Origin: Thunnus thynnus
Lineage: Eukaryota
Assembly (NCBI RefSeq): GCF_963924715.1
Contig: NC_089527.1
Location: forward strand, 28,314,551-28,378,550
Direction: 5' to 3'
DNA length: 64,000 bases
Under the pieces are notes generated by a model that saw only the letters and a list, made by a program, of their open reading frames with translations, had not been told where the DNA came from and did not search any database. A program made the translations under genes and the position numbers. This document shows positions 1 to 64,000 of the stretch, piece after piece. Position 1 is the stretch's first letter. Every line of letters starts with the position of its first letter.

Positions 1-2881
1 TTCACTACCATTGCCTTATCCTCCGCACCTCCCGAAAGAAACAAATATAAACAAATGTAACATATACTAGCAGCTAAATGCACGTAAATGCCGTTTAGCC
101 ACCTCTCAAATTCAGAAATAGTGTTTACACAAACTTTAATGACTTTACAACTGTTAGCTCAGACTGGCTTCCTACCGCAGTTTGTTACTGTTAACATTGA
201 CCAACAAAGCACCATGAGCTCCTGCTACGCAGGTGTTCAAAACAAACAAACCCTCCGCGTTGAAGCTAGCAGGCAGACTGGAGCTGCTTTCATGAGACAG
301 ACGAATGAATCAGAGTTCAGAAGATCATATATGACATTAACATGTGCGGCATCAAATAATAATAGTTAAAGTTGTGCTTCATGCTCTGTCAGATTTTTAA
401 AAGGAAGTTTTTAATATTTCCAGAGTGAGTGAAGGAATCAGGAGAGAGGAGACAGAAGTGAGGAAGCAGGATGTAAAGTTAAAGGTGTTGAAAGAAAAAC
501 AAGGAGAAAGTAAAGAACTGATTCAAGAAGGAAGAAGGTGCAACTGTTTCAAGATGTAAAGAAAAAGTTTAAGGAGGAAAGAGAAACACATAAAAGCAGC
601 CCAGGCATCAGGTGATGGAGAGACATGAACACATTCAAAGCAGGAGGCAGAAAAAACTAGTAAGGTCTAGATGAATGACTGTTCTGGTAAATATTTTTAA
701 AAACACAATCTGTTATCCAAACTAAAGGACATCCTAACAAACAAAAGTCAAAGTACAAGATTAAACCCTGCTATAAAAGGACTCACAGATCTTTAATACA
801 GGTAACGTTACTAACACCACACAACAGCTCTATTAACATGATGTTTTCCTAAGCTGTTAAAAGGTTGTTGACCTCAGTAACTCTTGTAAACACAGCACTA
901 AAACTAACAGATAGTTTCAGTTATTAGTCAACAAAATGCTGATTCATTGTTCATCTGACTGATTCATCTATCAGTCAAACTGTTGTCTTTAGGTTTGAGC
1001 AAATGAATTCCCCATAAGTCAGTTTTGTTATTTTGTTATATTTCAAAAACTGATCTGTATTCAGGACCATATACACCGTGTGAGAATCCAGATTTGTTTT
1101 TAAGATCAAGACTGATCGGTCCATCTATCCATCCATAAAGCCTCTATTTATTTATGTGTTGTAAATAAATATTGTTAATATTTAAAAATTAGGTAAATAA
1201 ATATTGTTGATATTTATTTACCTAATTTTTGTGCACTTGTTTCATTTCAAGGCGGGAAGTAATGGCTTCAATAAAATTCATAAATTGAATTATTCATATG
1301 TTGACACTGTTTGCTGTCAACTGTTTGTTCATCTGAATTCTGCGTTCTGCATTTGCAAACAAAATGAAAAAAGTAAATTATAGCCATTTTTACCTTGACA
1401 AGTGACTTTCGTGCAACTGAAAGGTAAATTTACTTGTCCGATGGACAAGTGCCTCAGGAGGTTAATGTCAAGCCCTGCCTCATTGAAATGACTAAAAGCA
1501 GAGGCTTCAGAATTTGTCAAGACAGAGTGGGTCAAGGCAGGCAGGACTCAATTTTCATGAAAAAGGTAATGCAGTCAAGGCTGACTCACCTTGGTATTTT
1601 CATGGCCAGAGGGAGTAGAAAGAACCCATTATCATAAACTATCATGTACATTATAGGTAGGTTGGTTTCAGAGGTTGGTGACAGTCGTGGCTAATCACAT
1701 TCACATTCACCCTTTTTGTCCAATTTAAAAGCAGGGCTCTCCCTGACATGATGCAGTGTTTTCTAGGAGATAACCTCAACTCATACTCTTACCCAGGATG
1801 ATTTTCATCGGACTGTCTAATGTTTCTACAAAAAGCAGCATATGCCATCATTTGAAATATACTATATCTGCATAAAAGTCTACACATAAGGGCTTAAAGT
1901 TGAATTTCTGGATATTGAAAACAAGATGGTCAACATGATGCACCGTTTGACTTAAAATCACAATCATAGACGCACTATCCACATTTGCAGTTACAAATCC
2001 TACTGTAACGCATATAAATAAAACTAAAATTAAAAACATCATTACTATACTGTAGATTGTATTATCTTGTTTTCTTTTTTTTAATTTATCATTATTGTTT
2101 ACATTTAGTTCTTTTTATTTAGATGCAGCTGTTTTCACATGCAAAAAGAAATACTGGGAACAATAAAATTGCCTTTTCAATTCTACTTTCCATTAATTGG
2201 CAATTATCATAATGATCTTTTGCAATCCACAAAATGCAGATTTTATTTTTTCGGTCATATCATTATAAATTTTAACCATCAGTGCTATGTGAACAATTAT
2301 CATTCTATTTCACTTCATCATGCTGGTCAAAGCAGCCCCATGTCTATTTGCCCAGATTTTGCCCAACTCATTTAAATGAAGAGTATAAAGAATAAACCAA
2401 GGATCACTATAATTAGTCTCTGATGCTATTTCACTTGTGCTCACATCATCCGCCTGCTGCTCTGACTCCAGGGCGGCTGCTGTGTCTTCTTCCCTTTCCT
2501 CTCCAGCACAGCTAGCCTCTCCCACTCCACTTATCTTCAGGCTGGGTCTCTCCTCCTCCCTGACACAGCTACTTCCATCTCCAGACTCAGCTGCTTCTGT
2601 CAGGACATGTTGTGTTAGATTTTAAACAAGCTAATAATTGGATGTTAAAGTTAAAGCTAGGTGGTAGCTATTAGTGGCTGTGTTTGTAGTGGCTAGATGT
2701 TAAACCAGTATGTCAAGGAAAATTATGAAGATAAAAGATAACAAGCTTTTATGTGACTCACAAATACTATATAAAGTTTTCACAAATATGTACTTTTAAA
2801 AATTAGTCCAGCAGATTATTTATTATTTATTTTATTCAGAAAAATGCATACTGTACTTTTTTGAATAATATATATAATTGG

Positions 2882-2882
<1 letters not shown>

Positions 2883-2910
<28 letters not shown>
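2883..2910. repeat. (TA)n microsatellite.
   Basis: tatatatata... 14 units. Confidence 0.9.
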
Positions 2911-2916
<6 letters not shown>

Positions 2917-3059
2917 GCCATCTCCAGAAGAAATCGCACAGTCTATGTCTGCCTTAACCAAACTACCTATAAGCCTAATCATACTAAATCAGACATGGCG
3001 AGCCCAGCCACGTCTGAATCCTAAAGTTGAAGAGACCTCTTTGAGAACCTGGAATCAGT

Positions 3060-3700
3060 GTTGGGGTATATGACTGAAGAGTTGGTGCCTGGCTTTGCAA
3101 CTCAGCTGAAAGAGAAGCTGCACGACTACAGGAAGGGGACAAAACCCTTTGACAGCAACTTGAACAGGCTTTAGCCAGAGCAGAAGCGCCGCAGGCTCAA
3201 TGTAATGCACCAGATGAGGGTGCTAGTGAGCCTCCAGAAGAAGGAGGGAAAGCTGAGTTGAAGGGAAAGAGCGAAAGGCTAGAACAATCCCTCCGAGAAT
3301 GTAATCATGAGCTCGCCACAACAATAGATCGACTTGACAGGCCTGATAACCTCCTTAAGTGGGCAGTAGAGGAAATAAAAGAACTGAAAGCTAAGGTCGG
3401 AGTCTATGCCAAATTTAGAGAAGCTGACCATAAGTACATACGAGACATACGATAGCAACCACAGATAGCCAGGGACAGAGCTAAGGTGTCCCATCAGCAA
3501 CCTGAAACCAAAGAGGAAGAATTGGTAGATGTTAAAGGAGAACTACAACATTCTTTTGAATAAGGTCAAAACCAACAAGAGCCTTTTAATGAAGCTTTCC
3601 ATGAGGAAAGGAAAGAGGTAAGACCCCCTAGGGGCGTTCAAGGAGGCTTGTCCTCACCACTGCTCAGTGGTGCATGAAGCCACCTGTGCGGCCCATAGAG
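3060..3700 (+). other. Decayed coiled-coil-like coding fragment of unknown origin (duplicated at 34330-34960).
   Basis: Reads ..ERLEQSLRECNHELATTIDRLDRPDNLLKWAVEEIKELKAKVGVYAKFREADHKYIRDI.., then continues in shifted frames after stops. No splice-site structure could be assigned. Confidence 0.3.
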
Positions 3701-4540
3701 CAAGCGCACTAGTGACTTACGCCGGCCGGGCTTCTGGTTTAGCCCTCTGGCTAACTTGAATGGGGATAAAATAATTCAATCGTGCAGCTCTTCTAGACTT
3801 TCAAAATGTGATTGGACCGAACGGATCAAATTATGAGAGTGAAACCAGTCATTTCACAGGAGTTGTGACGCTCAAAAAATGTATCCACTGATTTACAAAC
3901 GTCTCTCTCACAATGTTAGTCGATGGAAAAAATCTTTTTGGGCCAGTGTGCATCATGTGATGTTGCAGTTACCCGGTTTGGCCACTATGTCAAATTTACT
4001 TCAAAGCCCAGCACTCTTCCTGTATCCAGTTTGCCCAGTGTTTTCCCTCCTGTATTCTCAGCCTGCTTTTCCCTCCACTCTTCCCTTCTCACCTGCCTGC
4101 ATCATCTTCATTAGTCCTGCCCTTTTCCCAGAATTTTCCCAGCCTATCAGCTTCTTTTATGTTCTTCTGTTTCATCTCCTCAGTCCCCTCACTCAAGTTT
4201 CTCTGCCCATCTGCCCACCTGCACCTCATCTCCTCATTATTTCAGTTAGTATTTCAGTTCTGTGTTTCAGTTCAGTCTTGTTGGATCCTTTGTTCTGTAA
4301 AGTTCTGCTCTGTTCAGTCTGGTTTTGTTCTGCTGTATTAAAGAGACTTCTTTCAGTTCGGTCTAGTTGTTTTGTCCTGCATTTGGGTCCACCTGCTCTG
4401 CTACTCCTGACAGCTATTTGCTTTAAAATGATACTGGAAGCTGTAATTACTGAAAATGTACATTTTAAAAGTTTTAAAATGGTATTTGAGATAAGTGACT
4501 GAATAAACATAAATGTGACATGTCTTTTGATTTATTTCAG

Positions 4541-4687
4541 ACTCCGTTGTCATAAACAACCTGACTGAGGTTCTCCAGTACAGTAATAACAACCTTTCTT
4601 CCGTGTCTGAAGAGAGAGAACTGCTGCTTGCCAACCTCACTGAAATAACTAAAGAGATGGAAAAGCTTCAGAGTTTGTCTGTACAGA
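4541..4687 (+). CDS. Gene A neck (coiled-coil) exon 1, 147 nt, phase 1/1.
   Basis: AG acceptor tttatttcag|ac, donor caga|gtaagt. Encodes DSVVINNLTEVLQYSNNNLSSVSEERELLLANLTEITKEMEKLQSLSVQ with heptad leucines and NLT glycosylation sites. The minus-strand ORF in the track is its antisense artefact. Confidence 0.7.
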
Positions 4688-5303
4688 GTAAGTGACATCT
4701 GTGGCTATACAGTACTGCCCAGCACTGTTCCTGTATCCAGATCTCTTTATACATCCATGGGAGCTACCAGCTTGAGTTTGCCCTGTGTGTTTCCTCCTGT
4801 ATTCTCAGCCTGCTTTTCCTTCCACTCTTCCCTTCTCACCTGCCTGCATCATCCTCATTAGCCCTGTCCTTTTCCCAGTGTTTTCCCAGCTTATCAGCTT
4901 CTTTTCCGTTCTTCTGTTTCATCTCTTAATTTCCCTCACCCATCTGCCCATCTGCACCTCGTCTCCTCATTATTTCAGTTAGTATTTCAGTCCTGTGTTT
5001 CAGTTCAGTCTTGTTGGATCCTTTGTTCTGTTAAGTTCTGCTCTGTTCAGTCTGGTTTTGTTTTGTTCCATTTTGCTGTGCCTGCACACCTGTATCCTTC
5101 TTAAAGAGACTTCTTTCAGTTCGGTCTGGCTGTTTTGTCCTGCATTTGGGTCCACCTGCTCCACTACTCCTGACAGCTATTTGCTTTAAAATGATACTGG
5201 AAGCTGTAATAACTAAAAATGTTCATTTTAAAAGTTTTAAAATGGTATTTGAGATAAGTGACTGAATAAACATAAATGTGACATGTCTTTTGGTTTATTT
5301 CAG

Positions 5304-5450
5304 ATTCTGTTGTCATAAACAACCTGACTGAGCGTCTCCAGGACAGTAATAACAAGCTTTCTTCCATGTCTGAAGAGAGAGACCTGCTGCTTGCCAACCT
5401 CACTGAAAAGACTAAAGAGATGGAAAAGCTTCAGAGTTTGTCTGTACAGA
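5304..5450 (+). CDS. Gene A neck exon 2, 147 nt, phase 1/1.
   Basis: Tandem copy of the exon-plus-upstream-intron module at 3990-4690. Acceptor tttatttcag|at, donor caga|gtgagt. Encodes ..SVVINNLTERLQDSNNKLSSMSEERDLLLANLTEKTKEMEKLQSLSVQ. Confidence 0.7.
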
Positions 5451-5689
5451 GTGAGTGACATCTGTGGCTATACAGTACTGCACACACATTGTAGAAGAGC
5501 AACTGCAGAGAACACTATGCTGAAAATAGAAGATGTTGTGGCAATCTGTCCTATTAATTATACAAATGATCTTCAATCAACAAGTTTGTTGTAACTTGTT
5601 GATTGTAACTGTAAAATAACTTTGTGGATTTGTTCGTGTATTTACTCCGCTTCAAACATTTTAAAATTTTTGTCATCAGGAAATTCCAA

Positions 5690-6180
5690 ACACCGTCAAC
5701 ATTTAGCATGTTAGCATTCTAACCAATAATATCATGCTAACATGCTAAATGTGACTTTTGTAACACGCTACAGTAAGTTTAGCATGTTACAATGCAAAAT
5801 GTGGTAACACTTGATATGACGCCCATGATTATAATACATTATAAACATACTTGTAATGCAGTGTAATCTGCTTATAGCACTGTATAATTATAGTTCTAAG
5901 CACTCATAAATATTCATAATGCTTTATAAGAATAATCATAACACATTATTATGTATTCTATAATTACTTATAAGACTAAGTATCATAATACTTCATAATT
6001 GCTGATCACTCACTGACCTTTTTTTTTCATAGTGATCATAGTGTATTATAATTCTCATAGTTGTAATGCATTATAAAATGATTATAATGTCTCAATAACC
6101 ACTGTTATGAAGCATTAAAATGTGATTGTAAGTTACTCTAAGTGGTTATTGTTTGCTTGTTAAGTCAAGTAAAAAATAAA
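5690..6180. repeat. Unclassified AT-rich interspersed repeat (the 'cattataa' family). It is the left arm of an inverted pair whose right arm is 7850-8300.
   Basis: Starts with the palindromic catgttagcat...atgctaacatg. The body 5820-6180 is the reverse complement of 7850-8300. Family members also occur at 6770-6960, 14520-15000, 37090-37500, 39130-39560, 49560-50070 and 60640-60960. Confidence 0.7.
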
Positions 6181-7849
6181 ATCATTAAATCTATGCAAAA
6201 ACACTCAGGACCCTATTTTAACGATCTAAGCTCACGGTCTGAAGGTTTTAATTGCTGAAAGTATGGAAACCTGATCACTGTAATCTCAAAAATGTTAAAG
6301 ATTATTTGTTAAATATTGTCCAAAAATTAAAACATTAATTTTAATCATATAGAAAATCATCATACACAGTTGTCAGGACTTGATCAGCTCTCCCAGGTGC
6401 TGATCCTGCTGCTGGCAGCAGCTAAGAGCTGTGCACCATTCTTTCCTTCTTTAGATTAATCATTGTTTTCACTTAATTTATTTCCCCATGTGTTCCTCAT
6501 GTCCTCATGTATTGATGAGCAGGAAATCCATGTCTGATTCGTTGTTGAAATCCGTTTGCTGGGTCTGACACACACCGTCAACCTGACAGGTTTGTTTAAA
6601 TACCTCCGTGTGTTGCCAAGATATGGTCAAATAATTAGACAATTTCGTCCGTCATTATTGCAATTAATTAATTCTGATAAATATTAGGACTAACCATTAT
6701 GACATGTATTTTTTCAAATATGCTAATGTACACAACAATATTCTTTCACAATATAATCCTTTCTGTGCATTATAAAATGATTATAATGTCTCAATAATCA
6801 CTGTTATGATGCATTAAAATGTGATTGTAAGTTACTTTAAGTGGTTATTGTTTGCTTGTTAAGTCAAGTAAAGAAAATATCATTAAATCTATGCAAAAAC
6901 ACTCAGGACCCTATTTTAACGATCTAAGCGCACGGTCTGAAGGTTTTAATTGCTGAAAGTATGGAAACCTGATCACTGTAATCTCAAAAATGTTAAAGAT
7001 TATTTGTTAAATATTGTCCAAAAATTAATTAAAATTAAAATTAATTAATTCTGATAAATATTAGGACTAACCATTATGACATGTATTTTTTAAAATATGT
7101 TAATGTACACAACAATATTCTTTCACAATATAATCCTTTCTGTGATCTTTGCATGTTTGGGCGCTGCTGTGTGTCTGTGTGTGTATGCGTGTTGTTCACC
7201 TGCCTATGTAGGCATATTACTGTCTTGATAATGCGCCTTAAAAATAACAGTGAAATACTGTACCATCGACCAGGTTTTTGTTGCTCAATAACGAAATCGA
7301 TTTCTGCTGCTTCAAGATAGCAATGCACCAACAATGCGCCCGACCACACCTCATTTTAAGACCAACACGCCCATGGGCACTGAGATGGGCACAAGTGGTA
7401 GTGCTATTTAAACTACGTGGGTGCCTAAACTAGCAAAGACTTACCGGGTGTAAGATGGGGCCCAAAATGTTGTAAAATTAAGTTGTCATCACTTCATTGT
7501 GTCATAACACACAATGAAGTGAGTACTCCCGTTTGACAATGAACAACTGAATGATGGACATTTACAATTCACTAATGTAAGTGAGAAATACTGCCTACAC
7601 TCATAATTTGAAAATTAGCTATATTGGCTCAAAAAAACAAGTAACTTTGACTCAGAAAAATATATTACATAGAATAATATTACTGTATTGTTTGTTTATA
7701 TTTCATAAGTGTTATATTTAGACTTGGTCCTCAAAATGAGTTGAAGTGAATGAGGAGCCTGACACCTGGGAGGAATGGTGGTGTTGACAGCAGATGACAG
7801 GGACAGTAGTGGACAAATAAATTAATTTTACAATGTTTTGTGTTCTTGC

Positions 7850-10009: not shown

Positions 10010-10152
10010 AGAAAACTTGTCCTGCAGGATGGAGGATGTTCGGCTGTTCCTGTTATTTCCTCTCCAGTGAGTCTGGTTCCTGGTCAAGAGGCAGACAGGA
10101 CTGCAGAGAGAAAGGAGCAGATCTGGTGGTTATAGACAGCACTAAAGAACAG
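10010..10152 (+). CDS. Gene A CTLD exon 1.
   Basis: Acceptor tgttacag|ag, donor cag|gtacag. Encodes (K)KTCPAGWRMFGCSCYFLSSESGSWSRGRQDCREKGADLVVIDSTKEQ, with the CPxGW and WxxxxxxC..GAxLxxIxS hallmarks of C-type lectin domains. Confidence 0.8.
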
Positions 10153-10675: not shown

Positions 10676-10676
<1 letters not shown>

Positions 10677-10748: not shown

Positions 10749-10752
<4 letters not shown>

Positions 10753-10855: not shown

Positions 10856-10965
10856 ACATTCTTGACTACCTTCACTGACGAAGAAACTTGGAGTTGGATT
10901 GGTTTGACTGACAGAGACAAAGAGGGAACCTGGAAATGGATTGATGGAACACCACTGACTTCAAG
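10856..10965 (+). CDS. Gene A CTLD exon 2.
   Basis: Acceptor aaaacag|ac, donor caag|gtttgg. Encodes TFLTTFTDEETWSWIGLTDRDKEGTWKWIDGTPLTS (WIGLxD...EGxWxWxDG motif). Confidence 0.8.
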
Positions 10966-11602: not shown

Positions 11603-11753
11603 GTACTGGGAAACAAATGAGCCTAATAATGGAGGTGTCGGTGAAGAGGACTGTGCACATATCAGGACTGGCAAGAAAACTGAAGACAACTGGAATGATC
11701 TGTCATGTGATGCTTCTCTGCGGTGGATCTGTGAGAAAAATGCTGGTGTATAA
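11603..11753 (+). CDS. Gene A CTLD exon 3 with stop. Carries an EPN Ca/sugar-site motif.
   Basis: Acceptor ctgtag|g. Encodes (R)YWETNEPNNGGVGEEDCAHIRTGKKTEDNWNDLSCDASLRWICEKNAGV* with EPN, WND and three conserved Cys. TAA at 11751-11753. Confidence 0.8.
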
Positions 11754-16471: not shown

Positions 16472-16613
16472 AGAAAACTTGTCCCGCAGGATGACGTATG
16501 TTCAGTTTTACTTGTTATCTCATCTCCACTAAATCTGGTTCTTGGAAAAAGGCAGAAAAGACTGCAGAGCCAGAGGAGCAGATCTGGTGGTCATAGACAG
16601 TTATGAAGAACAG
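16472..16613 (+). pseudogene. Gene A' pseudo CTLD exon 1.
   Basis: Homologous to 10010-10152 but TGG is changed to TGA (CPAG*RMF), there is a 1-nt deletion, and a downstream in-frame TAG. Splice sites retained. Confidence 0.7.
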
Positions 16614-16798: not shown

Positions 16799-16902
16799 GA
16801 ATTCCTCACTAATATTACAAAGCAAGAAAGTTGGATTGGTTTGAGTGACAGAGAAAAAGAGGGAACCTGGAAATGGACAGATGGAACTCCACTGACTCAG
16901 GC
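16799..16902 (+). pseudogene. Gene A' CTLD exon 2 of a second subfamily. Open frame, but part of a disrupted gene.
   Basis: Acceptor ttgaacag|ga, donor ggc|gtaagg. Encodes EFLTNITKQESWIGLSDREKEGTWKWTDGTPLTQ. Differs from the A/B/C exon 2 (TFLTTFT...). Confidence 0.6.
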
Positions 16903-19130: not shown

Positions 19131-19207
19131 CTACTGGGCGATGAAGCAGCCTGATAAAGGAGATTGAGATTCGAAATGGGGAGAAGAAGACTGTGCGACA
19201 ATCAGAG
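19131..19207 (+). pseudogene. Gene A' CTLD exon 3 remnant (5' half only). Homology ends about 110 bp before the ERV LTR.
   Basis: Reads YWAMKQPDKGD*..GEEDCATIR, homologous to YWxxNQPDNG..GEEDCVHIR. Preceded by the homologous intron end (tcatgattctc...). Homology stops at about 19207. Confidence 0.6.
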
Positions 19208-28133: not shown

Positions 28134-28179
28134 ATGGAAGAAATCTATGTTGATACCAAACATTCAACAATTCAGACAG
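28134..28179 (+). CDS. Gene B exon 1 (start codon, cytoplasmic tail).
   Basis: ATG at 28134 preceded by an in-frame TAG at 28107. Encodes MEEIYVDTKHSTIQT. Donor cag|gtaaga. Ends in phase 1. Confidence 0.6.
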
Positions 28180-28280: not shown

Positions 28281-28382
28281 GTCCGAAGACTTCAGAGAGG
28301 AGATTTCATGGAGCTGTTCTTGTCTTTCTGGGGCTGCTGAGTGTTTTCCTGCTGGCTGGACTCATCGGCCTCAGAGTCTACT
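28281..28382 (+). CDS. Gene B transmembrane exon.
   Basis: Acceptor ctctgttcag|gt, donor tact|gtgagt. Encodes GPKTSERRFHGAVLVFLGLLSVFLLAGLIGLRVY. One 22-residue hydrophobic helix following a basic RR, which fits type II membrane topology. Confidence 0.75.
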
Positions 28383-35852: not shown

Positions 35853-36020
35853 ACCACAGTGTGCGCAGTTCAGCTGAAGATATCATAAACAACCTGACTG
35901 AGCATCTCCAGGACAGTAATAACAACCTTTCTCCCATGTCTGAAGAGAGAGACCTGCTGTTTGCCAACCTCACTGAAATAACTAAAGAGATGGAAAAGCT
36001 TCAGAGTTTGTCTGTACACA
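35853..36020 (+). CDS. Gene B neck exon 1 (168-nt variant).
   Basis: Acceptor tttatttcag|ac, donor caca|gtgagt. Encodes (Y)HSVRSSAEDIINNLTEHLQDSNNNLSPMSEERDLLFANLTEITKEMEKLQSLSVH. Confidence 0.7.
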
Positions 36021-36632: not shown

Positions 36633-36779
36633 ACTCCGTTATCATAAACAACCTGATTGAGCGTCTCCAGGACAGTAATAACAAGCTTTCTTCCGTGTCT
36701 GAAGAGAGAGACCTGCTGCTTGCCAACCTCACTGAAATAACTAAAGAGATGGAAAAGCTTCAGAGTTTGTCTGTACAGA
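36633..36779 (+). CDS. Gene B neck exon 2 (147 nt).
   Basis: Acceptor tttgatttcag|ac, donor caga|gtgagt. Encodes ..SVIINNLIERLQDSNNKLSSVSEERDLLLANLTEITKEMEKLQSLSVQ. Confidence 0.7.
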
Positions 36780-41303: not shown

Positions 41304-41446
41304 AGAAAACTTGTCCTGCAGGATGGAGGATGTTCAGACGTTCCTGTTATCTCCTCTCCAGTGAGTCTGGTCCCTGGTCAAGAGGCAGACAGGACTGCCG
41401 AGAGAAAGGAGCAGATCTGGTGGTTATAGACAGCACTGAAGAACAG
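41304..41446 (+). CDS. Gene B CTLD exon 1.
   Basis: Encodes (K)KTCPAGWRMFRRSCYLLSSESGPWSRGRQDCREKGADLVVIDSTEEQ. Acceptor gttacag|ag, donor cag|gtacag. Confidence 0.8.
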
Positions 41447-43075: not shown

Positions 43076-43179
43076 ACATTCTTGTCTACCTTCACTGAGG
43101 TAGAAACTTGGATTGGTTTGACTGACAGAGACGAAGAGGGAACCTGGAAATGGATTGATGGAACACCACTGACTTTAAG
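43076..43179 (+). CDS. Gene B CTLD exon 2.
   Basis: Encodes TFLSTFTEVETWIGLTDRDEEGTWKWIDGTPLTL. Donor aag|gtttgg. Confidence 0.8.
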
Positions 43180-43790: not shown

Positions 43791-43953
43791 GTACTGGAGG
43801 TCAAATCAGCCTGATAATGGAAATGGAGATCCGCAGTGGGGTGAAGAGGACTGTGTACATATCAGGGCTGAGGGGAAAACTGGAGACAACTGGAATGATC
43901 TGTCATGTGATACTTCTCTGCAGTGGATCTGTGAGAAAAATGCTGGTGTATAA
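43791..43953 (+). CDS. Gene B CTLD exon 3 with stop. Carries a QPD motif.
   Basis: Encodes (R)YWRSNQPDNGNGDPQWGEEDCVHIRAEGKTGDNWNDLSCDTSLQWICEKNAGV*. TAA at 43951-43953. Confidence 0.8.
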
Positions 43954-46358: not shown

Positions 46359-46410
46359 ATGGAGGCAATTTATGCAAATGTTGACTCAATAACTTCAACA
46401 AAACAGACAG
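46359..46410 (+). CDS. Gene C exon 1 (start codon, cytoplasmic tail).
   Basis: ATG at 46359 preceded by an in-frame TAG at 46338. Encodes MEAIYANVDSITSTKQT. Donor cag|gtaaaa. Confidence 0.6.
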
Positions 46411-46489: not shown

Positions 46490-46591
46490 GTCTGGGGAGC
46501 TCACAGAGGAGATTTCATGGAGCTCTTCTTGTCTTTCTGGGGCTGCTGAGTGTTTTCCTGCTGGCTGGACTCATCGGCCTCGGTGTCCACT
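46490..46591 (+). CDS. Gene C transmembrane exon.
   Basis: Encodes GLGSSQRRFHGALLVFLGLLSVFLLAGLIGLGVH. Acceptor ctctgttcag|gt, donor cact|gtgagt. Confidence 0.75.
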
Positions 46592-47515: not shown

Positions 47516-47683
47516 ACCACAGTGTGCGCAGTTCAGCTGAAGATGTCATAGACAACCTGACTGAGCGTCTCCAGGACAGTAATAACAACCTTTCTTCCGT
47601 GTCTGAAGAGAGAGACCTGCTGCTTGCCAACCTCACTGAAATAGCTAAAGAGATGGAAAAGCTTCAGAGTTTGTCAGTACAGA
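47516..47683 (+). CDS. Gene C neck exon (168 nt, single copy).
   Basis: Encodes (Y)HSVRSSAEDVIDNLTERLQDSNNNLSSVSEERDLLLANLTEIAKEMEKLQSLSVQ. Acceptor tttatttcag|ac, donor caga|gtgagt. Confidence 0.7.
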
Positions 47684-52075: not shown

Positions 52076-52218
52076 AGAAAACTTGTCCTGCAGGATGGAG
52101 GATGTTCAGATGTTCCTGTTATTTCCTCTCCAGTGAGTCTGGTTCCTGGTCAAGAGGTAGACAGGACTGCAGAGAGAAAGGAGCAGATCTGGTGGTTATA
52201 GACAGCACTGAAGAACAG
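52076..52218 (+). CDS. Gene C CTLD exon 1.
   Basis: Encodes (K)KTCPAGWRMFRCSCYFLSSESGSWSRGRQDCREKGADLVVIDSTEEQ. Confidence 0.8.
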
Positions 52219-53890: not shown

Positions 53891-53994
53891 ACATTCTTGT
53901 CTACCTTCACTGAGGTAGAAACTTGGATTGGTTTGACTGACAGAGACGAAGAGGGAACCTGGAAATGGATTGATGGAACACCACTGACTTTAAG
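53891..53994 (+). CDS. Gene C CTLD exon 2.
   Basis: Encodes TFLSTFTEVETWIGLTDRDEEGTWKWIDGTPLTL. Confidence 0.8.
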
Positions 53995-54606: not shown

Positions 54607-54769
54607 TTACTGGGCAACAAATCAGCCTGATAATGGAAATGGAGTTCCGAAGGTCGGTGAAGAGGACTGTGTACATATCAGGTCTGGCAAGGAAACTGAA
54701 TACAACTGGAATGATCTGTCGTGTGATGCTTCTCTGCGGTGGATCTGTGAGAAAAATGCTGGTGTATAA
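54607..54769 (+). CDS. Gene C CTLD exon 3 with stop. Carries a QPD motif.
   Basis: Encodes (S)YWATNQPDNGNGVPKVGEEDCVHIRSGKETEYNWNDLSCDASLRWICEKNAGV*. TAA at 54767-54769. Confidence 0.8.
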
Positions 54770-57700
54770 TATGTAAAAATGCTTTTTCAAAGCAAACTAT
54801 GATTTTGCAAAAGGCAAATCAGTTTGTATGTGTGTGAATTTAAAACTTTTCTCTGCTGTGCTGATGACCTTTTGCTTCTGCTCTGCCTTTTTAAAGAGAT
54901 TTCTATAAATTAGATGTTTACAGCTTTTGCCAGAAGAGCTTCATTAACCAATTTCCAATGTTTCAAACAACTAAAAGAAGCAGACAGATAAAACAAATCA
55001 AACCTCTGCAAAATGCAACAGATTCATAAAAACCTTTATTTTGATTAATGTCTTAGCTAAAGATTTCATGATAGTTGAAAGTTGCAAAAAGCCTGATTGA
55101 GACCATTTATTATGACATCCCTCATATCATAATTAAACAATGTAATATGGATTTTGTGTAATTATGTCTTATTATATCATCAAATGACGCTTTCCTGAAA
55201 ATTTTTAAATGAAGTGTGTTCAGCAGCTGATAGATCTCTTTAGCAGAGGTCATCAGTGTTTGTGAATTTTTCTTGATAATTAGTGGTTTCACTCAGGAAA
55301 CACTTGCTGTTGTGAGAAAATTATCAAATTATTTTAGATGAATTGTAAATTAAAACTATTCAACAGTTGAGTCAATATAAAGTCAGTCAATTACAACATA
55401 TAAGCACTGTACTGGAGTCAGATGTTTGTCATGATGTCCTTTGTAATGCTGGTAGCTGATACTGGTTGTGGCTTTTTATGTAATTATGAAAACAATTAAA
55501 ATCTTTTTAAAAATTGAATTGAAAAGAAGTTAATGATATGATTTAAAGGTAGATTTGAGGATTGCTGTGGCTCTATAATGAAACCCTTGAGTTGAATCAC
55601 CCACAACAATTAAAATCTTTTTAAACAATTAATTTTTTTCAGTGTTTGTTTCTTTTATCATTAATTGTGCAGAAAAACCCTGTTCTACTGGGATGTGAGA
55701 GGTCAGCTACAGATGGGGATTTCATTCATTCAAAACTGAACTTGGTTAAAAGATGATCTGTCTTTTCACCACACTCTCATGCTGTATTCAACAGGCACTA
55801 AGTGAAGAAAACAACTCTAACAATAAAACAGAACGTCCTGTATCTCAATCTAGACAATCTACTGGATGAGATCTGAGACTGTCTTCACCAGAAAAATAAA
55901 AGCACTGGTTGTTTGTACAAGTGACTTGAGGAAGAGTTCAGGTGGACAGGTGGGTCAGCAAACCATGTGGCTTTGACATGAGGGACAGCTGTTCTTTTGT
56001 TTACTTAACTAAAACTACTTGGTTGGAGTTGAGGAAGGATTGTCTTCATGGTTCAAAGGAACCAACGTTGACTGTTAGACAGGACCGTTTGTACACCTAC
56101 CATCCATCACAACCTCCACCTCCAAGCATTAAGGTTCCCCAGAACTGTCTTTTGTGTCTATAGACCAGCTGCATGTGGACTTAATTGTCGAATGTAATAT
56201 TGGGCTTTATGACACAATGTAGATCATATTGTATATTATGTATCCTGCTGGACTTCAGTCTAAAGCAATATGACATCTTTAATGTGTATTGTGTATATAA
56301 TTAGACTTTTGTGTTGTGGTTCCTACACCTGCTGTAGGAACCAATACATATGATCTGTGTTGTTGGCTTGAAACAAAAGATGGTGCAGGTGTGATGTCAT
56401 CAGGGTAGAGTAAATATGTTTCATTCAGTATTTTTCAGAATTTTGGACCCTATTTTCAAGTGTAATTCCATAGGTCTATATTCAGTTTTCCTTTCAATTT
56501 TCTCAAAAAAAAACCCAAAAACTAACAGTCCCTGTTCTAAAAGTAGGGATCAATTTATTAAAATAAATCTCAGGTGAGCTCTGATATCACAGTGAAATAT
56601 CTAGCCATGACTTCAGGACTTGAATGGAAAATAATACAAGAAGTTTATGATATGATTTAAAGGTAGGTTTGAGGATTGCTGTGACTCTATAATGAAAGCC
56701 TTGAGTTGGATCACCCAAATCAACAAACTGAAAGGAGCTCCAGAATCTCAGGTGCTTTGAAAACCTTACAGCAGATAGTTGGTTTAAACAGTATACAGGT
56801 TATTATATATTCATTTTTTATAGTTGTTAAATCTATCATATGTCAGTTTTAAATATGAATTTTTGTCCCAGATTTAATTTTTAAAAAGTAAAATCCATTT
56901 CAAATCAGAAAATGTCATGATATAAGTTAAATCATATTCAAAGTAAACTTTGTGCAGTCAGGCTCTTTATGTGGTTGCACACGTGTGCATATGAAAGAGA
57001 AAAGAGATAGAGAGCAAGTGCACATACACAACTGTTTATTTTTTTCGTCTGACAAAATAAAGCCTGTCAAGTTAAAACCATATCTACACACTTGGGGGAA
57101 AGAGTCCTCGCTGGAGAAGTATGAGGGTAAAGTCACTCTAGGAGGATCTGCAGCAGTGGCTCCGTTGTGTGTGTCTGTGTGCAGGCCTGGTCAACTGCCT
57201 TATTTTTTTTCCTACCCGCATTCTGACCTGCCCCTACTCTGCCTCTGATTGGCTCTGATGCTGATATTCTTACCCTAACCATCTCACTCCTTATGCCTTG
57301 GCATAGGCACCCCATTAGATGGCCATCTATCATTAGACTGCTGTAATTCCTTATAAGTTGGTCTTAGTCAGTCTTCCATATCCCGCATGCCACTTATTTA
57401 AAATGCTGCTGCTCCTCCGTCACTCCTGTGTTGGCCTTTCTTCACTAGTTTCCTGTTCAGCATAGAATTAATGACAACATCTCACTGTTTCTCCTTATAT
57501 TTCTGACTTTTAAACCTTCCAACTGCTCTGGGTCTTTGAAGTCTTCTGATTTAAACCCATAAGTGCCACCATAAACACTGTTTTTTCCATTACACTGTGA
57601 TATTAGTATGTTATATGGGCTGCTAGGTGATACTGCTACATCAGTGTTGCTTGTTCTTACACAGCTGATTTTTTACATTGATGACAGTGGTGTCATGGAC

Positions 57701-58050
57701 ACAAGTACCACAAGGCTTTGCTTTAACTTATCTACTTCCTCAATGATACCCCTGTTGCCACTGTTCTGTGGAACAAATGTATTAGAGAGCAGTTTACAGA
57801 CATGTAAAATATGAACATTCTGTGTAAGAATGACAAAAAACATAAGCAGCCATTATTGGTATTATGAAAAACAATATGAATATTTTCTCTACGAGCGACA
57901 AATGAAAATCTCCTTCCAATGAGCTTACTACCAAACAGCATCCATATGTTTATTTCTGTTTAAAAAGTAAAACAAGACAAGAGACTTATGAAGTAAAATT
58001 TTACTCAAAACAATTTTTGTCTCCTGTAATTCTTGTGACTCAACAATCAG

Positions 58051-58109
58051 CAAATCTAGAGCTTATGCTTATGCAAATGTTGATTCAAGAACTTCAACAA
58101 AACAGACAG
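58051..58109 (+). pseudogene. Gene D exon 1 homolog lacking an in-frame ATG.
   Basis: Aligns to 46359-46410, but ATGGAGGCA is replaced by AGAGCTTAT. The frame reads ..SRAYAYANVDSRTSTKQT. Donor cag|gtaaaa retained. Confidence 0.5.
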
Positions 58110-58191
58110 GTAAAAATGTTGCACAAAGATCTCAATTATCATCTGTTCTTTTTACTGTATCATTGACTGTATTGACTGTTTCTCTGTTCAG

Positions 58192-58293
58192 GTCTGGGGA
58201 GCTCACAGGGGAGATTTCATGGAGCCCTTCTTGTCTTTCTGGGGCTGCTGAGTGTTTTCCTGCTGGCTGGACTCATCGGCCTCAGTGTCCACT
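58192..58293 (+). pseudogene. Gene D TM exon (intact frame).
   Basis: Encodes GLGSSQGRFHGALLVFLGLLSVFLLAGLIGLSVH. Confidence 0.6.
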
Positions 58294-60177
58294 GTGAGTC
58301 TGTTTCACATTCAGAAGTTTAAGTCAGACTGAATTTAGGAGGAACATTCTACAGCAAGATGCCTATTTTTCTTTTTCATTTATGTTGTACTGCTCTGCTT
58401 ATTCTCAGCCAAACTCTGCAGGTAGAGGTCTGGATGAACACGAGCATCACCTCAACTTTCTCCTTGGTGCCATATTTTAAACCATGTTTGAATGCTGGTG
58501 TAGGTCATATGTGTCATGTCTTTGATCTCTGGACACCTGCATGGACTTGTTTCAATGATGTTTCATAAAACTACATTAATAACAGGGAAAATATTCTCCC
58601 ATGTATCTGTATGTAAACGCCATTTTGCAGGTGAAAAAAAATACCTTTAAGGTTACTATGTGGGACAATACTTCAAATCTAAAAACATTAAGTTTGCCTG
58701 TAAAATAGTAACGGTACGGATACGTGTCACACTTCTTTGGTTTTTTTTACTAAGGTTAAATGCCCCCCTCTTTCTTTCTCTCTCAACCCAACTGGTCAAA
58801 GCAGATGGCCGCCCACAAAGAACCGAGTTCTGCTTGAGATTTCTACCCATTAAAGGGGAGTTTTTCCTTGCCGCTGACACCAAATGCTTAATCACGGGGG
58901 TTGTTGGGTCTCTGTAAATTAAAGAGTACAGTCTAGACCTGCTCTATGTGAAAAGTGCCCTGAGATGACTTTTGTTGTGATTTGGCGCCATATAAATAAA
59001 AATTGATTGATTGATAAAATTGAAATGTTATTGAACCTGTTGTGAGAAAACATCAGGGTGGCATAATATTTACAACATGCGCTGTATGTGCTGGGCTGCT
59101 CAGTGTCAAACACCAGGACTGCTTTTATGTCGCAGTCAAAGCTGGATGAAAATCTGAAAAAAAACTTGCTTTGAATAACTTCTAGAGATCTGGGAACGCG
59201 GTGATATTTTTTCTACTACAGTGGTTTGTTGTGGACAGAAATCCTTAGCTATTGTCATGGTTCTGTCCCAGTCTGGCTCTATGTCCTTACACCAGTCCAC
59301 CAGGTGCCCTCAGACTTTTTCCCTGTTTGTTGAACTGGACTGAGTGGCAGTAAGCCCTGGAAGTTGATATTGAAGTTTGCTTTCACTAGTTGTTCTCTTA
59401 AGGAAATGTGACTGAGGACTGTTGCTTGCTACACACTGACCCTCGTAGATACTATGTGCAAAAGTGAACTGAAAGTCAGAGCAACAGTTGCCTTTTTGTT
59501 GTTACATGCAGGCCACTCCACTTGACAAACTTATTATTTCATGTTTATGTCAACAGCAATGTATGTTTGAGTTGTTTAAAGACTCTAAGGTTATCAGTCT
59601 TATGTTGAGGTGTGTTTGCCGTTTCTGCTCAGTGTGACTTGTGTATTTAACTTATATTCATGTGTATGCTGGGTTTTTGGTTTTCAGTTTGCCCTGTGTT
59701 TTTCCTCCTGTATTCTCAGCCTGCTTTTCCTTCCACTCTTCCCTCCTCACCTGCCTGAACCATCTTCTTTAGCCCTGCTCTTTTCCCAGTGTTTTCCCAG
59801 CCTATCAGCCTCTTTTCCGTTCTTCTGTCTCATCTCCTCATTCCCCTCATCTGCTCACCTGCATCTCATCTCCTCATTATTTCAGTTAGTATTTCAGTCC
59901 TGTGTTTCAATTCAGTCTTGTTGGATCCTTTGTTCTGTAAAGTTCTGCTCTGTTTAGTCCGGTTTCTTTTTGCTCCATTTTGCTGTGCCTGCTCACCTTT
60001 TACTACAGAGACTTTCTTCAGTTCATTCTCGTTGTTTTGTCCTGCATTTGAGTCCACCTGCTCCGCTACTCCTGACAGCTATTTGCTTTAAAATGATACT
60101 GGAAGCTGTAATTAATGAATGTACATTTTAAGTGACTAAATAAACATAAATGTGACATGTCTTTTGATTTATTTCAG

Positions 60178-60354
60178 ACTACTATGTGTGCAGTTAAGCT
60201 GAAGATATCTCCATTATCACAGACAACCTGACTGAGCGTCTCCAGGACAGTAGTAACAACCTTTCTTCCATGTCTGAAAAGAGAGACCTGCTGCTTGCCA
60301 ACCTCACTGAAATAACTATAGAGATGGAAAAGCTTCAGAGTTTGTCTGTACAGA
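60178..60354 (+). pseudogene. Gene D neck exon with an in-frame TAA.
   Basis: Homolog of 47516-47683 with a 9-nt insertion and TCA changed to TAA (..YYVCS*AEDISIITDNLTERLQDSSNNLSSMSEKRDLLLANLTEITIEMEKLQSLSVQ). Confidence 0.55.
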
Positions 60355-62482
60355 GTGAGTGACATCTGTGGCTATACAGTACTGCACACACATTGTAGAA
60401 GAGCACTATGCTGAAAATAGAAGATGATGTGGCAATCTGTCCTATTAATTATATAAATTATCTTCAATCAACAAGTTTGTTGTAACTTGTTGATTGTAAC
60501 TGTAAAAAAACTTTGTGGATTCGTTCTTGTATTTACTCAACTTCAAACATTTTAAAATATTTTTTGTCATCAGGAAATTCCAAACACCGTCAACATTTAG
60601 CATGTTAGCATTCTAACCAATAATATCATGCTAATATGCTAAATGTGACTTTTGTAACACGCTACAGTAAGTTTAGCATGTTACAATGCAAAATGTGCCA
60701 AAATCACTTTACTTAGAGCAAACAACCACTTCTAGTGACTCATAACCAGCTTGTAATGTATTATCTCTACCTATTCCTCAAGAATTTCATTACTCCACTT
60801 AAAGCACCCAATGACCGGTTAGAGTAGCTTATAATCACATTATAATGCATTACAAAAATGATGACTATTTATGAGTACTTATAACTATAATTATACAGTG
60901 CTATAAGCAGATTATAATGCATTATGAATATGTTTATAATGCATTACAGACATTGGTGTCAAAGAAGTGTTACCCAAAAGGTTATGTGTATCACACGTAA
61001 TCAACTTTGTTCAACCCTGAAAATTGCCACTAAAATGATCTTGAAACAAAAGTTTCCACATCACTCTCAGGTAACTGCACACTTGACCAGGATTGGCTTC
61101 TAAACTACTTGTGATGTCACAGATCATGCTGGCAGGTTTCTCACCTTTAACTCAGATTTAAGGTGAGAAGCACAAACATCCAAATGAAGCAACAATAAGC
61201 AAAACACATTTTTGATTGGAGAGGGATTTTAATGTTAATAAATAAACTAGTTACATTTACAGTAGACTTTTAGAAAAGTTTTACTTCTCAACCAAATATA
61301 CAAAAGATCTTAGCCTGGACACTTTTAACATTCACACACATGCAGCTGATATCATATTTAATGCTGATGTTTTGCACAAAGTACCACATAAAATAATCAT
61401 TAATATCACTCCTTCAAGCTGATGTAAAAGTGAATGCACATAAACGCTGATGTTTGTCCAAGTGCTCATTTTTCTGATAAGTTTGTTTTTAATTATTTAT
61501 TTGACTATATAAAAAGGGGTTGTGACAGCCACACTCAAACCTCTGTCAGGCAGTGGAACAGCTGAGTGGGTGTGTCCCACGGGCTGTCATCTCGCCTCCC
61601 AACCATAGACGGTAAAAAAACATGGATGTAGTCATCATGACGTCACCGATTGGTTTGTGGACTGCCGGTTTGAAACCTTGTGTTTAGCGATTTGACACTG
61701 AGTGGTCACTTGTGGTATTGCAGCAAAAAAAAATCCCCTGCAGCCTAAAACGTATTTTCCCCATAGACCACCATTGTAAAAGAGGCAACTGTAAAACTGT
61801 TAGCAGGACACTTTGAACTGCAAACAAGGTCAATTATGTATCTTTCTATTATGAATTTTTGATCCATGGAGGTTTTTCATTTGTAAAAATTTTCTTGAGC
61901 CAAGGAAAGCCATATAAAAATCGGTGACATCGTCACAATGTAAAGTCTATATTCAGTGGGCTGCACAACATGGAAGGGTGCCATTTTTGGTCCGGTAGCT
62001 CTTATAATACATCCATGCTTGCTCCTGACTCTACTACACAGACTCGAGCTCCAAATTACTTCACACAAGCAAGATGGCAGCTCCCTGAAATGAGATATTT
62101 TGGCTTCACTTTTGCATAGAAGTAGGAAGCGGAGACACATCATAATGCAGCTTCTTTGCACTATTTTTGCTTAAGACTATTTTTATACTGCCCTCCTTGT
62201 TCTGATGGGTGTCATGTGAAATAATAAGTAACTACTAATTTGTGGTAGTACTGGCAGTACTTGTAGACTGTGAGGAATCATTAGATGAAGCATTAGTCTG
62301 GGTTTGATGACACAATTTTATCCTGCTCTTGGTTAAGGCTGTTTGGATTCATCCTCCATTGTATAAATTATGCACATTAGGGGTTCATGCACTGAAAACA
62401 GTTTTTGAAACCAGATATTGACAAAGAGAAGGACATAAGCTGTGTCTACTCTTTAATGTCTCTTGTTTAACATGTTTTACAG

Positions 62483-62625
62483 AGAAAACTTGTCCAGCAG
62501 GATGACGTATGTTCAGTTTTACTTGTTATCTCATCTCCACTAAATCTGGTTCTTGGGAAAAAGGCAGAAAAGACTGCAGAGCCAGAGGAGCAGATCTGGT
62601 GGTCATAGACAGTTATGAAGAACAG
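62483..62625 (+). pseudogene. Gene D pseudo CTLD exon 1 (TGA shared with 16472-16613).
   Basis: CPAG*RMFSFTCYLISTKSGSWEKGRKDCRARGADLVVIDSYEEQ. The same TGG-to-TGA change as in A', but without the 1-nt deletion. Confidence 0.65.
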
Positions 62626-62970
62626 GTACTCTGCGTGTGTATGTGTGTGTGTGTTTGTGTATGTGTGTGCTGATAATGTTGACTGTCTACCCTGTACTGT
62701 ACATAAGACATGTATGTCCTGGAAGAGGGTTCCCTCCTTTGCTGCTCTTTATTTAGTTTTCTCATGTGTTTTTTTGTCATCCATCAGTGTTTAGCCTCCT
62801 AACCCTCCCTATTGCTTTATGCACAAATTCCAAAAGAAAAAGGTTTTTCAAGTTTTTTTTTTAAATGAATCCTTATCATAATTGTTCATATTAATCCCTG
62901 TAAATTACCTTTATAATATGGTTGAAACTAAATATAAATACAGTGGCTTTCTTTCCTTCACATTGAACAG

Positions 62971-63074
62971 GAATTCCTCACTAATATTACAAAGCAAGAA
63001 AGTTGGATTGGTTTGAGTGACAGAGAAAAAGAGGGAACCTGGAAATGGACAGAAGGAACTCCACTGACTCAGGC
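62971..63074 (+). pseudogene. Gene D CTLD exon 2 (subfamily 2). The downstream exon 3 was not found before the window end.
   Basis: Encodes EFLTNITKQESWIGLSDREKEGTWKWTEGTPLTQ. Donor ggc|gtaagg. Confidence 0.55.
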
Positions 63075-63646
63075 GTAAGGCAGAAATTTTATTCACACCT
63101 ACTCCAAGGTTGTTTTTGTTTGTTTGCTTATTTTGTTTGTTTTATTGGTTTGTTTGTTTGTATTATTATTACTTTAGTATAAAAGGTGTTACTACATCAT
63201 TATTTTTATATTATCTGTCACTATGATAATTATTATTCATTATTATCTATATTATTTCATATTTATTATCAATGATGCAACAACAATCATGATGCTTGTC
63301 ATTGTCATTTTCACTTATCATTCTCATTGTTATAGAAATAGTTATCATGAATGCTGTTACACATGCCATTATTGACATCAGGAGAAGGATGATGTATATT
63401 AATATTATTATATAGACAGCTATTATTAATATTAGTACACATGTTTATAGAATGATGATTATGATGTTGATTACTGTGGATAATTTATGTAATAATGGTC
63501 TATCAATTTTTGCATAGATTATTATCAGGATGAAAAGATGATGATACTACTATTATTATGATTATTATTGTCATGATTATTATACATATTAATGGGATGA
63601 TGATGACAACAATATTATTTATCTATGCTTTTTATAGAATTTGATG

Positions 63647-63647
<1 letters not shown>

Positions 63648-63700
<53 letters not shown>

Positions 63701-63712
63701 GGCATTCATATT
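63648..63712. repeat. (ATT)n microsatellite (a shorter tract at the homologous site 17466-17500).
   Basis: ttattattatt... more than 20 units. Confidence 0.9.
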
Positions 63713-64000
63713 AATTTTGATATCATTTTAAGAATTAAGAAACATGTAGTATTTGGTAACAGGCCGGATTTCAGTTCAGTTACTGAACTCTGTTCATTTC
63801 TACCGTTTTACAAGTGTGAGAATACACAGACACCTTCAGGTTCAGACCATACACAGACATACAATTAACAATTACACTGAACCTCCTCACTCAACAACCT
63901 ACTCTATTCACCTACTTCTTCTCTTTTCTTTCTATTCTCACTCTCTTGCGTTAAATTATTTTTTATTTATCATTATTATTTGTTATTTTATTTTTATTAA

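Follow-up and report, generated by a model that had tools for sequence, protein, structure and literature searches.

The closest described relatives of the genes considered here are group II (type II transmembrane) C-type lectin receptors. DC-SIGN and DC-SIGNR (CD209 and CLEC4M) have a helical neck of variable length and form a paralog cluster; in DC-SIGN, the neck is made of 23-residue repeats, the tail carries di-leucine and tri-acidic motifs and the sugar site is EPN. Mincle (CLEC4E) also has an EPN site, and its membrane span contains a positive charge through which it couples to FcR-gamma. ASGR1, ASGR2 and CLEC10A (MGL) have a QPD site and a coiled-coil stalk. In CLEC10A, internalisation and Src/Syk-type signalling both depend on Tyr5 of the tail motif YENF; the equivalent position of ASGR1 carries YQDL (PMC7404283). 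In fish, the teleost "DC-SIGN subgroup" (Fugu DC-SIGN-F1 to F8 and the percomorph CD209 antigen-like, CLEC4E-like and CLEC10A-like proteins) comprises type II proteins that have a neck and end in a single Ca2+-type lectin domain; they are encoded in tandem, lineage-specific clusters and have no identifiable tetrapod orthologs (PMC514892). The subject of this work is a 64,000-nucleotide stretch of a chromosome of the Atlantic bluefin tuna, Thunnus thynnus (the window), which in all probability is part of a large tandem cluster of such receptor genes.

On the plus strand of the window, a gene for a type II transmembrane C-type lectin is repeated head to tail in five units, called A, A', B, C and D. 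Units A, B and C apparently work and would be expressed, and A' and D are dead. The protein spliced from unit C is identical over 243 of 243 amino acids to RefSeq XP_067460381.1, "C-type lectin domain family 4 member E-like". This exact match identifies the source as the Atlantic bluefin tuna and independently confirms the junctions of unit C. Comparison of the window with itself reveals three sets of long, plus-strand direct repeats that are 95-97% identical: 1-13107 with 29143-45300 (A and B), 39971-47063 with 50758-58762 (B and C) and 14858-17849 with 60858-64000 (A' and D). The base composition is that of AT-rich vertebrate DNA (GC 0.32-0.45), and the long open reading frames are transposon remnants only. 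Our confidence in this explanation is high, and it applies to the whole: the layout of genes and proteins, the mode of action proposed for them and the evolution of the cluster. The genes of the window are in RefSeq and clusters of this kind have been documented in fish since 2004, so the finding is correct but ordinary.

The exons were spliced by hand from the sequence around recognisable motifs. Acceptors are pyrimidine-rich and all introns between modelled exons run from GT to AG. Phase is 1 at the end of exon 1, of the transmembrane exon and of the neck exons, 0 at the end of the first CTLD (C-type lectin-like domain) exon and 2 at that of CTLD exon 2. An earlier note, made from the letters of this DNA, had placed a series of motifs on the plus strand and every one of them is present where it was put. 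The same note had claimed canonical splice sites with consistent phases, which is borne out by 15 of 15 introns between the exons of A, B and C, and the positions at which it had A, A', B and C begin and end are exact. It had also counted at least three intact-looking paralogs plus two pseudo-units; the count is right, and what needs amending is that A is cut by the edge of the window and that B has an atypical tail.

Unit B is an uninterrupted reading frame of 290 amino acids. Its exon 1 (MEEIYVDTKHSTIQT; 28134..28179) ends in phase 1 and lacks the family-invariant Asn7. It is followed by the transmembrane exon (RRFHGAVLVFLGLLSVFLLAGLIGL; 28281..28382), by neck exons of 168 nt (56 residues or 8 heptads; 35853..36020) and 147 nt (36633..36779), and by CTLD exons 1, 2 and 3 at 41304..41446, 43076..43179 and 43791..43953. 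The last of these contains QPD, WND, WIC and the stop codon and is hypervariable in its first ~110 nt. Unit C, which is open over 243 amino acids, consists of exon 1 (MEAIYANVDSITSTKQT, with Tyr5-x-Asn7-Val8; 46359..46410), a transmembrane exon (46490..46591), a single neck exon of 168 nt (47516..47683) and CTLD exons at 52076..52218, 53891..53994 and 54607..54769, the third again with QPD, WND, WIC and the stop codon.

Unit A is open from its first neck exon through its stop codon. Neck exon 1 (4541..4687; 147 nt, which is 49 residues or 7 heptads, phase 1-1) was assigned from its AG/GT sites, its translation and tblastn to Thunnus proteins, and neck exon 2 (5304..5450; 147 nt) lies within a ~750-bp genomic tandem duplicate of 4028-4725. 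The CTLD exons are at 10010..10152 (KTCPAGW...), 10856..10965 (WSWIGLTDRDKEGTWKWIDG) and 11603..11753, the last with EPN, a loop that is 12 nt shorter, WND, WIC and the stop codon. Exon 1 and the transmembrane exon of A would lie ~1 kb to the left of position 1 and are probably not biologically missing, because the alignment of A with B, and an exon 1/transmembrane block just upstream of the collinear region in the ortholog of Thunnus maccoyii, place them there.

The encoded proteins belong to the Lectin_C superfamily and, on sequence and model, to the group II receptors with long-form, Ca2+-type CTLDs. The profile search that the earlier note had proposed as a check matches the spliced translations of all three units to Pfam PF00059 (Lectin_C) far above the gathering cut-off of 22.6 bits: 88.7 bits for A (E = 5.2e-25), 84.9 bits for B (E = 7.7e-24) and 85 bits for C (E = 7.4e-24). 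A database search returned 709 relatives, the best of which are Thunnus proteins of 84-97% identity that go by the names CD209 antigen-like, CLEC4E-like, CLEC10A-like and hepatic lectin-like. The group II layout is seen in a tail of ~17-25 residues, a basic RR on the N-terminal side of a hydrophobic stretch of ~22 residues (ALLVFLGLLSVFLLAGLIGLGV), which would be the only membrane span and act as signal anchor in place of a signal peptide, and one C-terminal CTLD. From the positive-inside rule, the proteins are predicted to have type II topology.

An AlphaFold2 model of unit C, built on an alignment of 65 sequences, has a mean predicted local distance difference test score (pLDDT) of 80.9, with most of the lectin domain in the high 80s to mid 90s. 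In this model, the tail (residues 1-24) is disordered and a single helix (27-107) forms the membrane span and neck; within the lectin domain, confidence is lowest in the variable loop at residues 201-210. Foldseek comparison with the PDB returns Mincle, DC-SIGN/DC-SIGNR, SRCL, MGL, ASGR1/2, SIGN-R1, CLEC4F, CD23 and fugu Mincle at ~29-42% identity, with probability 1.00, TM-scores (target-length normalised) mostly 0.8-0.9 and root-mean-square deviations (rmsd) mostly 1.5-2.8 Å. The earlier note had read the architecture as CD209/CLEC4/ASGR-like; this is upheld in that the nearest solved relatives, Mincle, DC-SIGN(R), SRCL, MGL, ASGR and CD23, are about equally near, at ~35-42% identity. No single family stands out in Foldseek, and the sequence search agrees.

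Conservation in the family alignment bears on whether these proteins bind sugars at all. Lectin-like receptors of the natural killer (NK) cell kind (group V, KLR-type), which bind proteins and not sugars, are also of type II topology and come in clusters of paralogs with fast-evolving ectodomains, as in the KLR/Ly49 clusters, and fish "cKLR" genes lie near this subgroup in some trees (PMC514892). It is nevertheless very unlikely that the tuna genes are of this type, as the Ca2+ site 2 residues that are absent from group V are all kept. All 65 sequences have WND, the two Glu of GEEDC and the Pro in the middle of the xPx triplet, which reads QPD in 57 of them and EPN in 5. Unit A reads EPN...GEEDC...WND, and units B and C read QPD...GEEDC...WND. 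In addition, the domain is of the long form with six cysteines (C111, C211, C229 and C237 invariant, C122 and C139 at least 90% conserved), and its best structural matches are sugar-binding group II domains.

Within group II, no mammalian gene stands in a 1:1 orthologous relation to the family. Mincle provides the top structural matches, with the cow, human and mouse proteins at 40-42% identity and rmsd 1.6-2.1 Å, and Takifugu rubripes Mincle (PDB 9kpl) at 42% identity. The tuna proteins differ from Mincle in having no charged residue in the hydrophobic span, the Arg-Arg pair being three residues before it at the cytosolic edge, in having QPD instead of EPN in B and C, and in carrying a putative signalling or endocytic tyrosine in the receptor's own tail. 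The "CLEC4E-like" name of unit C is an automatic similarity label only.

With DC-SIGN and DC-SIGNR, the tuna family shares the group II architecture, the helical neck of variable length and the clustering of paralogs; unit A is further alike in EPNN..GEEDC..WND, and the lectin domains are 35-42% identical with rmsd mostly 1.5-2.0 Å. The family is not DC-SIGN (CD209) proper, however. Its neck units are 49 or 56 residues long and occupy one exon each, the tail of C (MEAIYANVDSITSTKQTGLGSSQRR) has neither LL nor EEE, and B, C and most members of the family are QPD; in the window, A alone is EPN. ASGR1, ASGR2 and CLEC10A have the QPD site in common with B and C and also share the coiled-coil stalk, and unit C combines QPD with a Tyr5 Y-x-x-hydrophobic sequence motif as they do; their tails follow Y-x-[N/D]-hydrophobic (PMC7404283) and that of the tuna family M-E-E/A-I-Y-x-N-V. 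These are not orthologs either. Their lectin domains are 37-42% identical to the tuna domain with rmsd ~2.4-2.6 Å, the tuna domain is equally similar to Mincle and DC-SIGN (Mincle at E ~2e-29 and DC-SIGN at 4e-27 are slightly ahead of ASGR2 at 1e-25 and CLEC10A at 5e-24), unit A is EPN, and the neck is made of duplicable 49/56-residue exons. Judged by tail motif and QPD majority, the family resembles ASGR/MGL more than DC-SIGN. The fit is closest with the teleost DC-SIGN subgroup, of which unit C is one annotated gene: nothing essential differs, and copy number, pseudogenes and transposon insertions are specific to Thunnus. The lineage-specific expansion in fish that the earlier note supposed is on record for this very subgroup, as a tandem one (PMC514892).

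The cytoplasmic tail is well conserved at its start. Across percomorph fishes, the motif is M-[E/D]-[E/D]-I-Y-x-N-[V/I], with Tyr5 in 63 of 65 sequences and Asn7 in 65 of 65. Y-x-N corresponds to the consensus for the SH2 domain of Grb2, and Src prefers E-E-I-Y as a substrate. Unit C has M-E-A-I-Y5-A-N-V8 together with its QPD site. Unit B, also QPD, has Y5-V-D-T and no hydrophobic residue at +3; its tail, MEEIYVDT, stands against MEEIYVNTEDMKYVDT in close relatives, the difference being an in-frame 24-nt deletion between two YV repeats. By analogy with Tyr5 of YENF in CLEC10A/MGL, this motif would bring about uptake through clathrin and possibly signalling of the Src/Syk type. A search of the literature on hemITAM (hemi-immunoreceptor tyrosine-based activation) motifs in teleost lectins, tail motifs of fish CD209-like genes and tuna lectin expansion produced nothing specific.

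At the other end of the protein, the lectin domains would bind glycans via Ca2+ site 2. As a rule, EPN goes with mannose-type and QPD with galactose-type ligands, and fish members of this class show Ca2+-dependent agglutination of bacteria and binding of microbial glycans (PMC7080814, PMC11084180). Under this rule, unit A would be a mannose/N-acetylglucosamine/fucose-type receptor, and units B and C would be galactose/N-acetylgalactosamine-type receptors. The proteins may thereby be viewed as oligomeric, endocytic and possibly signalling glycan receptors of the ASGR/MGL/DC-SIGN kind.

The neck that joins tail to lectin domain would oligomerise the receptor. The 105 residues of the neck of B form 15 heptads in one register, which continues over the exon junction. 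In this register, 20 of the 30 a/d positions are hydrophobic and 0 of 10,000 shuffles were as good, in keeping with the heptad repeats that the earlier note had pointed out in the neck exons; the AlphaFold2 model of C is helical through the neck. The repeated neck exon is 147 nt long, which is 49 residues or exactly 7 heptads, and has phase 1/1. Gain or loss of a copy therefore disturbs neither reading frame nor coiled-coil register. In B and C, the neck exon nearest the membrane measures 168 nt (8 heptads); in D and some other paralogs, it measures 177 nt. A general rule by which every neck exon would contain a whole multiple of seven residues was considered and rejected, as it is true of the 147-nt and 168-nt exons and fails for the 177-nt form. 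A genomic repeat of ~750 bp surrounds each neck exon, with two copies in A and B, one in C and D, and four in one T. maccoyii model. These pyrimidine-rich neck repeats are at 4028-5487, 35340-36816, 47233-47760 and 59683-60400; those at 4-6 kb show up as skew (GC skew -0.17, AT skew -0.18), and a long spurious reading frame at 3879-4502 is neck repeat only.

The part of the gene that differs most between paralogs is the last lectin exon. In a gap-free comparison of the lectin-domain regions of A, B and C, introns and downstream flanks are 94-98.7% identical, CTLD exons 1 and 2 are 95-100% identical and CTLD exon 3 is only 87-93% identical, which makes it 5-7 times more different than its flanks. 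Between B and C, there are 21 differences in 163 positions of exon 3 against 29 in 1345 of the flanks (Fisher p = 6e-9); for A and B, the excess over the flanks has p = 7e-7. All 21 of the B-C differences fall in the 5' three-quarters of the exon and 18 of them in its first 110 nt. Encoded in this divergent part are YW-xx-N, the EPN/QPD triplet, the loop that precedes GEEDC and the hairpin that precedes WND, together the sugar-binding surface. Its nonsynonymous divergence (dN) is 0.14-0.22 (0.21 for B and C), against an intron divergence of 0.013-0.03, and the first 34 codons of exon 3 show 15 nonsynonymous and 2 synonymous changes between B and C.

Unit A adds a structural difference. An in-frame deletion of 12 nt in its exon 3 removes 4 of the 8 residues of the loop between EPN and GEEDC, which brings the spacing nearer to the 2 residues of human DC-SIGN. 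The deletion is common to the T. maccoyii ortholog, so it is real and not an assembly error; the first ~98 aligned nt of exon 3, with the deletion among them, are identical. Between these orthologs (A and Tm_2), the sugar-site part of exon 3 has 0 differences in 98 positions against 5 in 583 in the flanks. The sugar site is being kept different between copies, by substitution or by shuffling, and such divergence is a familiar pattern for immune receptor families. As to mechanism, the cluster would grow and decay by unequal crossing-over. The introns of A, B and C are 95-98% identical, and the sugar-site part of the last exon is kept or made different between paralogs as its surroundings stay near-identical.

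Several points weigh against parts of this account. Expression and splice junctions rest on one RefSeq model, that of unit C, plus homology, and unit A is without its 5' exons (exon 1 and transmembrane) within the window. In unit B, the 8-residue deletion (MEEIYV-NTEDMKYV-DT, the middle block being lost) removes Asn7, which is invariant in 65 of 65 family members, and no public protein equals B in any of the 6 forms tried, namely the full model, models with each neck exon skipped and three chimeras of B 5' with C 3' exons. Because of this lost residue and the missing match, unit B may be impaired or modelled differently. The EPN/QPD triplet is only a rough predictor of sugar class. The synonymous count in exon 3 is tiny (2-3 changes), so dN/dS (dS being synonymous divergence) is by itself no proof of positive selection. 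Finally, several exon-3 sequences of the B type turn up again in other T. thynnus paralogs whose upstream exons are different, which suggests that recombination or gene conversion is at least part of the pattern of divergence.

This last point leads to a different route to the same exon. The excess in exon 3 could reflect old, divergent exon types that were shuffled by gene conversion or unequal crossing-over as their flanks were homogenised, in place of new adaptive substitutions. Relationships do disagree from region to region: B and C are closest in intron b (8/611, against 15/540 for A and C), and A and C are closest in exon 3 (11/151, against 21/163 for B and C). Further support comes from the B-type hairpin HIRAEGKTGDNWNDLSCDTSLQWIC, which recurs in T. 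thynnus paralogs P0017, P0123 and P0125 with different exon 1-2 sequences, and from synonymous divergence within exon 3 that is also raised (dS ~0.10). We regard shuffling as a serious possibility that stops somewhat short of being probable, given that nonsynonymous changes still dominate in the first 34 codons and that a donor copy for exon 3 of C was not identified. Either way, selection must preserve the differences, and the two routes differ in how the exon arose and not in the outcome.

Exon 3 could also be varied at the level of RNA. A T. maccoyii CD209-like gene has RefSeq isoforms X1 and X2 that are identical except for CTLD exon 3, which X2 takes from the next unit, 18 kb downstream, with a change from QPD to EPN (18307-18477 versus 36672-36842 of locus L002, OU343201.1). 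The array might therefore be a combinatorial cassette, in which a read-through transcript keeps the tail, membrane span, neck and first two lectin exons of its own unit and swaps in the sugar-site exon of a downstream paralog, for example from QPD to EPN. All units have the same phases, so splicing between units is in frame, and all B/C chimeras built from the window are open; exon 3 is also the sole part kept divergent between units. This support is indirect and the idea is doubtful all the same, as the X1/X2 exon swap may equally be an annotation artefact. The 502-residue T. albacares protein XP_044222472.1 (P0124), a fusion of adjacent units with four membrane spans in series, is clearly one, and one T. 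maccoyii gene model extends for 65 kb over several units (10001-74885 of locus L001) with a separately annotated gene inside it. Public gene models of these arrays are unreliable without transcripts.

The arrangement of the array can be compared with that of T. maccoyii, where the cluster spans at least 270 kb by the record positions of loci L001 and L002. Positions 3-16780 of the window, with A and A', are collinear with T. maccoyii OU343201.1 at 97-98% identity and in the same order; outside this region, the order and number of units differ between the two species. Since the units are 95-98% identical over kilobases and tandem arrays are hard to assemble, the repeats could in principle be haplotypes or collapsed reads of a single gene, laid out as false tandem duplicates. 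This is extremely unlikely. The 2-5% divergence is well above the heterozygosity expected within a species, and the units differ in structure: neck exons number 2/2/1/1 in A, B, C and D, sites are EPN or QPD, one loop has the 12-nt deletion, and neither the type of 5' exon nor the set of transposons is constant. Moreover, in the genome of T. maccoyii, which was assembled independently, A and A' follow each other in the same order, and the loop deletion and the TGA codon of A' recur.

Units A' and D, which are 95-97% identical to one another, are real pseudogenes of a more divergent subtype, whose CTLD exons are ~55-70% identical in protein to those of A to C. In A', CTLD exon 1 (16472..16613) has lost 1 nt and has TGA for TGG as the Trp codon of CPAGW, CTLD exon 2 (WIGLSDREKEGTWKWTDG; 16799..16902) is open, and the remnant of CTLD exon 3 (19132..19205) has lost its acceptor AG and its 3' half (WND..WIC), contains an in-frame TGA and abuts a retroviral element. 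No exon 1, transmembrane or neck exons of A' are present at all. The possibility that the A' lectin exons serve as alternative 3' exons of gene A was examined and is ruled out by the stop, the frameshift and the lost acceptor. Unit D had been started at 58051 in the earlier note, which needs correction: its exon-1 homolog is at 58058..58109 and has lost the ATG, with no in-frame ATG back to a stop at 57989. The transmembrane exon of D (58192..58293) is still open, the neck exon (60178..60354; 177 nt) contains an in-frame TAA, CTLD exon 1 (62483..62625) has the same TGG to TGA change as A', CTLD exon 2 (62971..63074) is open and exon 3 is past the right edge of the window. The conceptual A'/D lectin domain still scores 62.7 bits to Lectin_C. 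As the stop in CPAGW is common to A', D and the T. maccoyii counterpart of A', the gene was dead before the A'/D duplication and before the split of T. thynnus and T. maccoyii.

With two of five units dead, B without the invariant tail residue and introns full of transposons, it might be asked whether the whole array is decaying, such that none of A, B and C works and their frames are open only through young age. We hold this to be unlikely. Units B and C have open frames of 290 and 243 codons and no damaged splice site, and the sugar-site part of A is unchanged at all 98 positions relative to T. maccoyii, although the count expected there is only ~1. The dead copies, which gathered multiple lesions in comparable time, provide a local picture of decay without constraint.

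Transposons occupy much of the remaining space. A degenerate, retrovirus-like element lies on the minus strand between A' and B (19320-27324), with reverse transcriptase (23401-23721), RNase H (22570-23208) and an integrase core plus MLV-type integrase C-terminal domain (21068-22084), and is bounded by direct repeats of ~180 nt (19320-19499 and 27151-27324; 88% identical). In T. maccoyii, the spacer from A' to the next unit has no such element and instead has ~1.75 kb that includes the rest of A' exon 3; a 94-98% similar element is found there upstream of another B-type unit. Nested in the element of the window, on the minus strand at 25793-25846, is a UnaL2 LINE (long interspersed nuclear element) 3' element (57.8 bits, gathering threshold 55), which is the sole match in the whole window to Rfam at gathering thresholds. 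An RVT_1 fragment of a non-LTR (long terminal repeat) retrotransposon is on the minus strand at 48612-49265, in the 4.4-kb intron of unit C between the neck exon and CTLD exon 1, and is absent from the corresponding intron of A and B.

Other repeats are smaller. Microsatellites are (AAT)26 at 10676-10754, in the intron of A between CTLD exons 1 and 2, and (TTA)18 in D at 63648-63700; a (GT)n run directly follows CTLD exon 1 of A' and D (listed at 16620-16660), and a short tandem repeat that reads as THSLTHSLTHS (27950-28009) is ~130 bp upstream of the start codon of B. Repeated blocks with open reading frames (88-369/29228-29527, 3258-3455/34527-34724 and 13120-13649/31018-31449) sit in the long intron between the transmembrane and neck exons of A and B, as well as downstream of A. 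None has a Pfam match, and they are probably remnants of unclassified transposons. Pfam searches of the intron and spacer frames at 88-369, 2310-2525, 3258-3455, 13395-13649, 15866-16150, 30943-31233, 34755-34946, 45017-45271 and 48082-48565 gave no credible family, and no non-lectin host gene was detected by Pfam among the intron and spacer frames of the window.

The main value of the analysis is that correct, multi-exon gene models are recoverable from raw sequence, with unit C equal to the public model exactly. The result could be relevant to the annotation of tandem arrays, in which automatic models fuse adjacent units, as well as to fish immunity and the health of tuna in aquaculture. For the biology of the family, the window presents one more fast-turnover cluster of innate immune receptors in a teleost. 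The cluster sets predicted mannose-type beside predicted galactose-type paralogs, varies the length of the neck by exon duplication and keeps the sugar-site exon divergent.

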